Counted from the stretch's first letter, positions 48,098 through 51,621 are shown. The stretch: 64,000 bases of DNA from Escherichia coli (GCF_024502345.1 NZ_JALDNN010000001.1); one strand, 5' to 3'. A program made the numbers and translations. Notes: generated from the letters alone by a model not told the origin.

Positions 48098-48299
48098 GTT
48101 TTGTAACCTGTTGTTAATTACTTCCAATCTCACCGCTTGGGGCATGGATGGGGCAAACTCACTCAATTTCTGGTTTAAAATGGATACCTGATCCTGAAAG
48201 TTTTCTGCCATCCACGATCCGTAAACGCGATAACATGTTTTGTCGGTGATGCTGCCAACTTACTGATTTAGTGTATGATGGTGTTTTTGAGGTGCTCCA

Positions 48300-48575
48300 G
48301 TGGCTTCTGTTTCTATCAGCTGTCCCTCCTGTTCAGCTACTGACGGGGTGGTGCGTAACGGCAAAAGCACCGCCGGACATCAGCGCTATCTCTGCTCTCA
48401 CTGCCGTAAAACATGGCAACTGCAGTTCACTTACACCGCTTCTCAACCCGGTACGCACCAGAAAATCATTGATATGGCCATGAATGGCGTTGGATGCCGG
48501 GCAACCGCCCGCATTATGGGCGTTGGCCTCAACACGATTTTCCGCCATTTAAAAAACTCAGGCCGCAGTCGGTAA
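48300..48575 (+). CDS. insA: IS1 InsA
   Basis: Translation identical to the copy A InsA. Confidence 0.95.
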
Positions 48576-48997
48576 CCTCGCGCATACAGCCGGGCAGTGA
48601 CGTCATCGTCTGCGCGGAAATGGACGAACAGTGGGGATACGTCGGGGCTAAATCGCGCCAGCGCTGGCTGTTTTACGCGTATGACAGGCTCCGGAAGACG
48701 GTTGTTGCGCACGTATTCGGTGAACGCACTATGGCGACGCTGGGGCGTCTTATGAGCCTGCTGTCACCCTTTGACGTGGTGATATGGATGACGGATGGCT
48801 GGCCGCTGTATGAATCCCGCCTGAAGGGAAAGCTGCACGTAATCAGCAAGCGATATACGCAGCGAATTGAGCGGCATAACCTGAATCTGAGGCAGCACCT
48901 GGCACGGCTGGGACGGAAGTCGCTGTCGTTCTCAAAATCGGTGGAGCTGCATGACAAAGTCATCGGGCATTATCTGAACATAAAACACTATCAATAA
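48494..48997 (+). CDS. insB: IS1 InsB'
   Basis: Identical to copy A except for one residue. Confidence 0.9.
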
Positions 48998-49208
48998 GTT
49001 GGAGTCATTACCTTGCGTAAGATAGATGAGACAAACTGAGACGCATAATGGTTTGCAAGGCTCTAATACTTTGATGTTGAGGATGTGATGGGGCATGTAC
49101 GGGGCATAGTACAATGATGTCCATGCTGGTGTAGATAATCTCCAGGCTTATCCGGTGCGCCGTAAAACCCCGTCCTTCAGGGCAGGGATATAAGGCGTGG
49201 TTTTCCAC

Positions 49209-49640
49209 CTAACCAGGTGTTTGCTGTTGTTCAATGTATTGGCGGATGACGGATATTGGCGCACCTCCGCAGCTACTGGCAAAATAGCCAGCACTCCACA
49301 AAACGCCTTTGTAGTAATACCTGACTGCAATATCTGGTCGATCTCGTCGCAGTCACCTACCCGATACGCCTTTGAGGCTGTTTACCAGACTGGATATCGC
49401 CAGTTTGGGAGGATAGTTAATTAACAAATGGACGTGATCTGGTTCGCCATCCATTTCAACCAGTTCAGCTTCAAAATCAGCACATACATTTGAAAAGTAA
49501 GTGCGTAGTTTTTCTGTCGCGTCATGGTCAAAAATCTGACGTCGGTATCTGGTGACAAAGACCAGGTGAACATGCATCAGGAAAACACAATGCCTTCCAC
49601 GCCGGATATCGGTTTCTTTTTTCACAGACCAAAGTATCAT
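49209..49640 (-). pseudogene. tnpA: IS200-type Y1 (HuH) transposase TnpA, interrupted by an in-frame TGA
   Basis: HuH motif (HVHLL) in the first 95 codons. After TGA at 49353-49355 the same frame continues with ...LWSAGYFASSCGGAPISVIRQYIEQQ, the typical TnpA C-terminus. Confidence 0.75.
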
Positions 49641-49647
49641 TTGGCCT

Positions 49648-50856
49648 GTGAAACGACTACAAGCATTTAAATTCCAGTTAAGACCCGGTGGTCAACAGGA
49701 GCGTGAAATGAGGCGCTTCGCAGGCGCATGTCGTTTCGTTTTCAATCGTGCTCTGGCACGTCAGAATGAGAATCATGAGGCCGGTAATAAATACATCCCT
49801 TACGGGAAAATGGCTTCCTGGCTGGTTGAGTGGAAAAATGCCACTGAAACGCAATGGCTTAAAGATGCCCCGTCACAGCCATTGCAACAGTCACTGAAAG
49901 ACCTTGAGCGGGCTTACAAAAACTTCTTCCAGAATCGGGCTGCTTTTCCCCGATTCAAAAAGCGGGGACAGAATGATGTATTCCGCTACCCGCAGGGCGT
50001 TAAGCTCGATCAGGAAAACAGCCGTATTTTTCTGCCGAAACTGGGCTGGATGCGCTACCGGAACAGCCGTCAGGTCACGGGTGTTGTGAAAAATGTCACT
50101 GTCAGCCAGTCCTGCGGTAAGTGGTACATCAGTATTCAGACAGAAAGTGAAGTATCAACTCCGGTTCACCCTTCAGCATCAATGGTCGGGCTGGATGCTG
50201 GCGTGGCTAAACTCGCCACGCTGTCAGATGGCACAGTCTTTGAGCCTGTAAACAGTTTTCAGAAAAACCAGAAGAAGCTGGCGAGACTTCAGCGACAGTT
50301 AAGCCGCAAGGTCAAATTCAGCAACAACTGGCAGAAGCAGAAACGCAAAATACAGCGACTGCATTCCTGTATCGCAAATATCCGCAGGGACTACCTTCAC
50401 AAAGTCACAACGACCGTCAGCAAAAACCACGCAATGATAGTCATTGAGGATTTGAAGGTCAGCAACATGTCAAAGTCAGCAGCGGGTACGGTCAGCCAGC
50501 CGGGGCGCAATGTCCGGGCAAAATCAGGTTTAAACCGTTCGATACTGGATCAGGGCTGGTATGAAATGCGCCGCCAGCTTGAGTACAAGCAGCTCTGGCG
50601 TGGCGGTCAGGTGCTTGCTGTTCCGCCAGCGTACACAAGCCAGCGTTGCGCGTGCTGTGGTCATACAGCGAAAGAAAACCGCCTGTCACAAAGTAAATTC
50701 AGATGCCAGGTATGTGGATATACAGCGAACGCCGATGTAAATGGCGCTCGTAACATTTTAGCGGCGGGGCACGCCGTTCTTGCCTGTGGAGAGATGGTGC
50801 AGTCAGGCCGCCCGTTGAAGCAGGAACCCACCGAAATGATTCAGGCGACAGCCTGA
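49648..50856 (+). CDS. tnpB: TnpB (OrfB) RNA-guided endonuclease, Cas12 ancestor (OMEGA-type)
   Basis: 402 aa with a RuvC-like core and a C-terminal zinc finger (CxxC...CxxC: QRCACCGH...[18 protein letters not shown]). Confidence 0.85.
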
Positions 50857-50895
50857 ACGTAGCAGGGATCCTCGTCCTTCAGGGCGTGGAGGATG

Positions 50896-51621
50896 TCAAC
50901 AAACAGGTTGAATTAACTCCGCGCCCTGGTTTTTGACATTACCTACCGCGCGCGATACCGGGTGCCAGGTGAACTGGTTTGCTGGCACACAGCCGTTGGT
51001 AGCAATTTCTGATGCTTCTTTACCGCCAATCTCTTGCCGCATCCATTCCTGTGCAGCTTCTGGCGACAGAACCAGCGGGCGGCGGTCATGAATGTCTACC
51101 AGACCCTGGTCTGCTGCAGCAGTGACAATTAAAAATCCTTCGGCTTCGTCACCACGCTCAAATGGTGTGCTACCTATCGCGGCCATAAAAATAGGTTGTC
51201 CATCAGCACGATAGATAAAAAAAGGCTGTTTTTTGTCGCCTTCTTTTTTCCACTCAAACCAGCCATCGGCAAAACAGATTGCCCGACCATGTTGCCAGAG
51301 CGGTTTAAACATGCGACTGGTTGCGGCAGTTTCTACGCGGGCGTTAATCAGCGGCGGTTTATCCCACCATCCGGGAGCATATCCCCAGAAAACCGGATCC
51401 AGATGAAGGTGTTCATCACGTTCACTGAGCAGAAGAACTTTGGTTCCCGGCGCGACGTTGTATCTGCCAATGGGTTCGGGATCGTAGGGAATATCGCGTT
51501 CAATATCTTCCGCGAGAAGCGCAAGGTAATCTTCACGCGAGGGAATATCGCGTTCAATATCTTCCGCGAGAAGCGCAAGGTAATCTTCACGCGTTTGGGA
51601 TTGGGCAAAGCGTCCACACAT
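50896..51621 (-). CDS. yedK: SOS-response-associated peptidase (SRAP; abasic-site DNA-protein crosslinking) YedK, with an 18-aa internal duplication
   Basis: Begins MCGRFAQSQTREDYLALLAEDIERDIP. The segment SREDYLALLAEDIERDIP occurs twice in tandem; the remainder matches remembered YedK. Confidence 0.85.
   Translation of the reverse strand: MCGRFAQSQTREDYLALLAEDIERDIPSREDYLALLAEDIERDIPYDPEPIGRYNVAPGTKVLLLSERDEHLHLDPVFWGYAPGWWDKPPLINARVETAATSRMFKPLWQHGRAICFADGWFEWKKEGDKKQPFFIYRADGQPIFMAAIGSTPFERGDEAEGFLIVTAAADQGLVDIHDRRPLVLSPEAAQEWMRQEIGGKEASEIATNGCVPANQFTWHPVSRAVGNVKNQGAELIQPVC
51486..51593. repeat. Perfect 54-bp tandem duplication (two units) inside yedK
   Basis: AGGGAATATCGCGTTCAATATCTTCCGCGAGAAGCGCAAGGTAATCTTCACGCG appears twice back to back; the result stays in frame. 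Confidence 0.9.

Follow-up and report, generated by a model that had tools for sequence, protein, structure and literature searches.

An IS609 copy with a nonsense-interrupted tnpA, an intact tnpB and a predicted guide RNA at the 3' end of yedK in Escherichia coli

Among the closest described systems, IS609 itself is already catalogued: Escherichia coli K-12 carries a copy with a broken tnpA (the pseudogene yncK) and an intact insQ, annotated as a "putative RNA-guided DNA endonuclease," and NCBI labels the yedK locus studied here alike. A second point of reference is ISDra2, whose target motif is TTGAT, from Deinococcus radiodurans. In Geobacillus stearothermophilus, most ISGst elements have no tnpA of their own and depend for mobilization on one TnpA from elsewhere; the donor joint, left without a scar, is cut by TnpB, which uses the same motif as TnpA, and a TnpB-mediated retention mechanism has been shown (PMC10055086). 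Moreover, tnpA lies nearby for only about 25% of tnpB genes (PMC10055086), and thus a nuclease without a transposase is the norm for the IS200/IS605 family. With respect to RNA, IS607 TnpBs use RAGATH-18 RNAs as guide scaffolds (PMC11061315), HgcC has the right-end-like UUCA tetraloop of tnpB 3'-end transcripts (PMC4615843), and RNA-seq of E. coli K-12 has been reported to contain a 3' sense transcript from tnpB (PMC4615843). One screen included the purification of an IS609-type TnpB (PMC12781874), but no activity result for a TnpB of this type was found in the literature covered.

We analyzed a 64-kb stretch of E. coli DNA (hereafter, the window), which contains one IS609 copy. The element at the 3' end of yedK belongs to the IS605 group of the IS200/IS605 family and was identified by reference to the copy annotated as IS609 in E. 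coli K-12 MG1655 (NC_000913.3, 1503161-1504908), to which it is 98.5% identical over 1748 bp. The two copies share this length, their ends, the TTAT target, the divergent arrangement of tnpA and tnpB with 7 bp between the start codons, and the same TGA at codon 96 of tnpA. They differ by 27 substitutions over the element, in the native tnpA stop (TAG kept in the window copy, lost to CAG in K-12) and in the insertion site, which is the yedK 3' end in the window and ydcL/ydcO in K-12, so that the predicted guide differs as well. With ISDra2 (PDB 8BF8, 8EXA, and 8H1J), the element shares the RuvC D-E-D triad, the CxxC...CxxC zinc finger, and a guide RNA, predicted here, that overlaps the gene 3' end and the right end and takes its guide from the flank, whereas the TTAT motif and the divergent tnpA and tnpB set IS609 apart. 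Unlike ISGst, which also has another host and other sequences, the window copy still has its tnpA, broken by a single nonsense codon. RAGATH-18 and HgcC both match the tnpB 3' end and right end, with a UUCA loop in the hairpin of the window, at scores below threshold. On the evidence set out below, we regard it as very probable that the yedK element is a non-autonomous IS609 copy in which tnpA is dead and an intact tnpB, with a predicted scaffold and a guide from the flank, would serve in retention.

The element spans positions 49152 to 50899 of the plus strand (1748 bp, without target-site duplication), as defined by the limits of homology to K-12 IS609, which opens at CCGGTGCGCC (window 49152) and closes at GGAGGATGTCAA (window 50899), and by the K-12 empty site. 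An earlier sequence-only reading had placed the bounds at 49150-50895 and had proposed alignment to an IS605 reference to fix the ends and confirm the tnpA stop; alignment to K-12 IS609 shifted both bounds, made the ends base-exact and confirmed the TGA. Directly 5' of the left end lies TTAT (49148-49151, plus strand), the target and transposon-adjacent motif (TAM). The yedK site is empty in K-12, where TTAT is followed directly by CAAACAGG, and K-12 yedK reads ATAATCTCCAGGCTTAT immediately followed by CAAACAGGTTGAATTAACTCC, i.e., the two flanks of the window joined exactly, indicating insertion 3' of TTAT without duplication. Each of the five E. coli loci examined has the same tetranucleotide before the left end, again without duplication, which is the fixed-tetranucleotide insertion of the IS200/IS605 family; the right flanks at the other four loci (ydcL/ydcO, yeaR/yeaQ, inside ytfA, and gltX/yfeD) all differ. 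In relatives from other genera, the left end was preceded by TTAT or TTAC, with boundaries judged by eye from the output of a noisy fuzzy-pattern search.

Both ends carry subterminal CGTCC-TTCA-GGGC hairpins in place of terminal inverted repeats, as is usual in the IS200/IS605 family. The left end (49152-49208, plus strand), which is conserved in relatives, includes an imperfect hairpin at about 49168-49187 (CCCCGTCC-TTCA-GGGCAGGG), and the core CGTCCTTCAGGGC is common to the left and right ends. The right-end hairpin (50869-50890, plus strand; UUCA loop at 50878-50881) is the last helix of the consensus structure described below and shows compensatory changes in four of its nine pairs across genera. 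In single-sequence folding, which is uninformative alone, the folding energy of the end hairpins was no better than that of shuffled sequence. The hairpin had been expected between the tnpB and yedK stops and was found there, but the right end itself crosses the yedK stop: the TGA that now terminates yedK (50896-50898, minus strand) is supplied by the IS609 right end, changing the end of the protein from ...PV to ...PVC.

On the minus strand, the element contains a tnpA pseudogene for a Y1 HUH transposase (49209-49640, ATG at 49640), whose conceptual 143-aa protein scored 146 bits against NF033573 (cut-off, 55) and matched solved IS200/IS605 transposases. The frame encodes the HUH motif (DHVHLLI, residues 69-71), meets a TGA at 49353-49355 (plus strand "tca") that replaces Leu96, and continues past it as LRRDRPDIAVRYYYKGVLWSAGYFASSCGGAPISVIRQYIEQQQTPG to the native TAG at 49209-49211; the HUH motif, the TGA, and the continuation into a TnpA C terminus had all been proposed earlier and were all read in the sequence. 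The motif WSAGYF, aligned with that of the solved transposases, lies downstream of the stop and contains Tyr119, which we take to be the catalytic tyrosine by homology to IS608 TnpA. A 95-aa product would therefore keep the HUH motif without its Tyr119 nucleophile, and with the catalytic tyrosine lost, the IS609 copy at yedK cannot excise or transpose alone. Leucine occupies codon 96 in all intact homologues, which are 95 to 99% identical in E. coli and 80 to 87% identical in Salmonella, Morganella, Photorhabdus, Klebsiella, and Proteus, and the alignment gives the change as TTA to TGA; Arg (CGA) and Trp were considered as the lost codon and ruled out by the same alignment. The PGAP annotation also marks the yedK-locus tnpA as a pseudogene with an "internal stop," beside an intact "RNA-guided endonuclease InsQ/TnpB family protein." The start codons of tnpA and tnpB are divergent and 7 bp apart (window 49640-49648), so each promoter must lie within the coding sequence of the other gene; a simple sigma-70 promoter scan gave no convincing site, for tnpB included.

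UGA followed by C is a weak terminator in E. coli, and the TGA-C context was read directly in the sequence, which raises the reading that the stop is leaky and that read-through gives a little full-length TnpA, leaving the element weakly autonomous. The allele is common, occurs at two loci, and is followed by an open downstream frame in all nine sampled TGA copies. However, the tnpA strand yielded no recoding signal and no Rfam match, the window copy carries P117A adjoining the catalytic tyrosine, the tnpA dN/dS of 0.62 in the TGA class, based on very few changes, is indistinguishable from neutrality, and IS609 did not transpose in K-12 mutation-accumulation lines (PMC5009759). We thus consider a weakly autonomous element improbable and retain the reading of a dead tnpA.

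The native tnpA stop (49209-49211) was itself polymorphic, being TAG in the window and CAG in many copies (L002, L003, and L006-L008). With CAG, the frame crosses the left end into the flank and gives predicted proteins of 160 to 224 aa, and in these copies PGAP notes "incomplete, missing C-terminus" on otherwise intact tnpA genes.

To describe the distribution of the stop allele, exact 35-mers were counted in 5426 complete E. coli genomes. The TGA form was present at 3146 places in 2602 genomes and the sense (TTA) form at 4459 places in 2531 genomes. Accordingly, the explanation that the TGA is a sequencing or assembly error in the window is refuted, with practically no probability left to it, by an exact match in 2602 independent complete genomes and by the PGAP flag on the same internal stop. 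The TGA allele was found at two loci or more, the K-12 copy at ydcL/ydcO being one carrier. Of 16 sampled copies, those with TGA were located at yedK (seven) and ydcO (two), and those with TTA at yedK (two), ydcO (one), and the three other loci. A distance (neighbor-joining) tree of the 16 copies did not group them by locus or according to the allele at codon 96, and TGA was fully linked to no other site among them. The TGA is an old polymorphism that has changed backgrounds through recombination or gene conversion, through trans-mobilization, or through both; the IS609 copies are mosaics, a pattern that favors recombination. As to the insertion, the junction of the right end with yedK was found in 666 of the 5426 genomes and the K-12-type empty yedK site in at least 1477. 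A larger figure, 4312 of 5426 genomes at 80% query coverage, was rejected as a measure of yedK occupancy because 90% of the query is the element itself, so that it counts any full-length IS609.

The tnpB gene (insQ; 49648-50856, plus strand) is an intact RNA-guided endonuclease gene of 402 aa with a GTG start, in agreement with the start and length annotated by PGAP. Its product scored 388.6 bits against NCBIfam NF040570, "RNA-guided endonuclease TnpB family" (cut-off, 100), contains the Pfam domains HTH_OrfB_IS605, OrfB_IS605, and Cas12f1-like_TNB, and matched ISDra2 TnpB with an E value of 7e-55 over about 370 aligned residues. The RuvC residues D183, E267, and D363 align to D191, E278, and D361 of ISDra2, and the zinc finger is retained as cysteines C334/C337 and C353/C356. 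A C336Y change in K-12 was considered as a lost zinc ligand and ruled out, since ISDra2 indexing gives C334 and C337 as the ligands and C336 as the middle residue. The score and the alignment uphold the full-length 402-aa TnpB with a RuvC-like core and CxxC...CxxC finger that had been recognized earlier, including its D-E-D catalytic triad, on whose conservation that assignment had been made to depend. Together with the family profile for TnpA and the identity to IS609, they also bear out an IS200/IS605 element in which tnpA is nonsense-interrupted and tnpB is full length. Judging from homology, TnpB should act as an RNA-guided nuclease.

A guide-RNA (omega RNA) scaffold was predicted at about 50768-50899 of the plus strand, running from the 3' end of tnpB into the right end. 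One genome per species was scanned for relatives, which gave 51 related loci, and the structure alignment was built from the last 135 nt of 15 relatives from other genera. The consensus RNA structure comprises 37 pairs in six helices, 9 pairs having compensatory changes; 97.2% of alignment cells were paired, none of 500 shuffles was as good, and controls with slid partners reached 38 to 48%. Two covarying helices fall inside the last tnpB codons, and the structure is intact in the window copy. In addition, Rfam RAGATH-18 (RF03064) matched a core at 50783-50826 of the plus strand with 25.4 bits against a gathering score of 44.9, and HgcC (RF00062) matched 50793-50912 with 19.3 bits against 50; both scores are below gathering, and thus the RNA is no member of curated RAGATH-18 or HgcC. 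Neither promoter and terminator scans nor the folding of single sequences exceeded what shuffles gave. The conserved structure may act as an RNA scaffold and, in the hairpin, as a single-stranded DNA signal read by TnpA, and the counts of pairs and changes fit both roles alike.

The terminus GGAGGATGTCAA is conserved in full-length loci from Enterobacterales to Methylococcaceae and a Zetaproteobacterium and is followed by unrelated sequence. In the window, the first bases after it form the predicted 16-nt guide CAAACAGGTTGAATTA (50900-50915, plus strand), a length assumed from ISDra2. The suggestion that any guide would derive from the yedK 3' end holds, as the flank from 50900 consists of the last codons of yedK, to whose coding end the predicted guide is complementary (antisense). 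TTAT plus CAAACAGGTTGAATTA matches the K-12 empty site, and the flank differs at every locus. At the sequence level, covariation, a conserved terminus, and unrelated flanks together give the structured 3' RNA with a variable guide that marks TnpB systems, and the window copy would express such a guide RNA.

The antisense orientation of the guide, and of any read-through transcript, to the yedK 3' end is also what would be expected if TnpB had been co-opted as a TldR-like RNA-guided regulator or if the guide RNA regulated yedK as an antisense RNA. The locus adjoins flagellar genes, near which TldR proteins are described in other bacteria. However, TldR proteins are recognized by an inactive RuvC site and the loss of transposon ends, while here the triad and both ends are intact; IS609 moreover occupies several unrelated loci with unrelated flanks, and the yedK insertion is confined to the 666 genomes noted above. 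Such co-option is therefore highly improbable, and the reading of a guide-directed nuclease serving in retention is preferred.

Full-length, 402-codon tnpB was present in 14 of the 16 sampled copies, the other two carrying a 100-bp deletion. The dN/dS of tnpB (Nei-Gojobori) was 0.28 over the 14 full-length copies, 0.37 in the TGA class, and 0.22 in the TTA class, while that of tnpA, with very few changes, was 0.53 in the TTA class, 0.55 over all copies, and 0.62 in the TGA class. These values are suggestive of purifying selection on tnpB outlasting the loss of tnpA, and only suggestive because the sample of 16 copies is small, holds few substitutions, and was drawn by similarity to the window. 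The deletion copies, and a tnpB stop in one of them, point to relaxed constraint in some lineages.

On this evidence, the whole element might instead be a decaying relic, with tnpB still open only because little time has passed and with protein and RNA now inert. Copies at yedK that have lost the scaffold and right end through the 100-bp deletion, one of them with the tnpB stop, fit such decay, as do the immobility of IS609 in the K-12 mutation-accumulation lines (PMC5009759) and a tnpB dN/dS that is higher for TGA than for sense-codon copies. Nevertheless, tnpB dN/dS is well below 1, 14 of 16 copies are full length despite 1 to 2% divergence, the tnpA stop is old enough to have reached 2602 genomes with tnpB yet kept, and the RNA structure is intact in the window copy. 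A relic is thus unlikely, although it is the alternative to which we assign the most weight, and a non-autonomous copy with a working nuclease is the reading pursued below.

The deletion just mentioned removes 100 bp between two GTGGAG repeats (window 50792-50891) in the yedK-locus copies of H1827/12 (L013) and NCTC9040 (L014), and with them the 3' end of tnpB, the right-end hairpin, and the greater part of the predicted scaffold. In a spread sample, 4 of 11 yedK-locus rows gave a matching two-piece pattern. NCTC9040 additionally has the tnpB stop and a frameshifted yedK.

In the mechanism proposed for the non-autonomous copy, IS609 inserted 3' of a TTAT overlapping the original tandem stops of yedK (TGA TAA), and the TTA-to-TGA change at codon 96 inactivated tnpA, leaving a copy without self-excision or self-transposition. 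TnpB would then bind a guide RNA processed from the 3' portion of the tnpB transcript and made up of the scaffold (about 50768-50899) and a guide that the flank encodes, CAAACAGGTTGAATTA, and the complex would cut yedK alleles without the element, in which TTAT is followed by the guide match. Such an empty site could arise by excision through the TnpA of another IS609 copy or could arrive as an empty allele via recombination, and repair from an element-bearing copy (the sister chromosome) would restore IS609. By analogy with the Geobacillus elements, nuclease activity and retention are probable for the window copy. Because TnpB-mediated retention acts by cleavage of the empty site that TnpA excision leaves behind, TnpA must be supplied by another copy when the element lacks its own. 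The proposal of the sequence-only reading that TnpB serves retention rather than transposition thus agrees with a mechanism known in relatives, but it calls for TnpA in trans, for which sense copies exist in 2531 of 5426 genomes. Likewise, its picture of an element that has lost its transposase and kept its nuclease fits the tnpA stop and intact tnpB of the window; this is, however, the usual state of the family, and it is not universal at yedK, since other strains have the 100-bp deletion or a tnpB stop there. More speculatively, and with little probability, the TGA could be a maintained leaky stop that throttles TnpA, or TnpB and its guide RNA at yedK could, during recombination, counter empty yedK alleles as they come in, in the manner of a drive; if true, a leaky TGA would explain its persistence in about half of E. 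coli genomes, at two loci or more, beside an intact and selected tnpB.

What the present analysis adds to the catalogued IS609 is detail, namely, the exact ends, the TTAT, the K-12 empty site, the predicted guide, the covarying RNA, the shared stop polymorphism, and the 100-bp deletion, and it matters little as a discovery. E. coli populations hold IS609 with and without the tnpA stop and with and without the guide-RNA region, plus exact empty sites, and this natural allele variety makes the TnpB retention model examinable in a model organism with known targets. IS609 at yedK could therefore serve as a natural test system.

Within the window, the gene order is fliF, fliE, IS1, and IS609, followed by yedK, yedF, and yedE on the minus strand. 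The supply of a stop codon by the right end was also observed elsewhere, as the stops of ydcO (K-12) and yfeD (O157) likewise lie inside an IS609 right end; at three of the five loci, the convergent host gene ends on the TGA in the reverse complement of the IS609 terminus (GTCAA), the sites besides window 50896-50898 being L003 7906-7908 and L008 4560-4562. As TTAT is the complement of A-TAA stop contexts, IS609 can land on a stop and supply a new one a codon later. Inside yedK, we observed a perfect 54-bp tandem duplication (51486-51593, minus strand; 2.0 copies, 100% match), which adds 18 in-frame residues near the N terminus, giving 241 aa in the window, with 223 aa in other insertion strains and 222 aa in K-12. 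On the other side of the element, an IS1 copy (about 48247-49014) separates fliE from the native flank next to the IS609 left end. The corresponding place in CFSAN061772 (L001) is occupied by about 2.8 kb containing emrE, ybcL, and ybcM, apparently reflecting an IS1-associated deletion in the window, whose exact IS1 junction occurred as one piece in no complete E. coli genome. To the left of the insertion, the window shares only 17 bp with K-12, ATAATCTCCAGGCTTAT (window 49135-49151 and L004 4495-4511). Beyond these, the K-12 sequence continues into yedL-yedN-intG and that of element-bearing strains into an AT-rich stretch and emrE-ybcL-ybcM, genes carried in K-12 by the DLP12 prophage; the divergence of the flanks beyond 17 bp places IS609 at the edge of a variable island.
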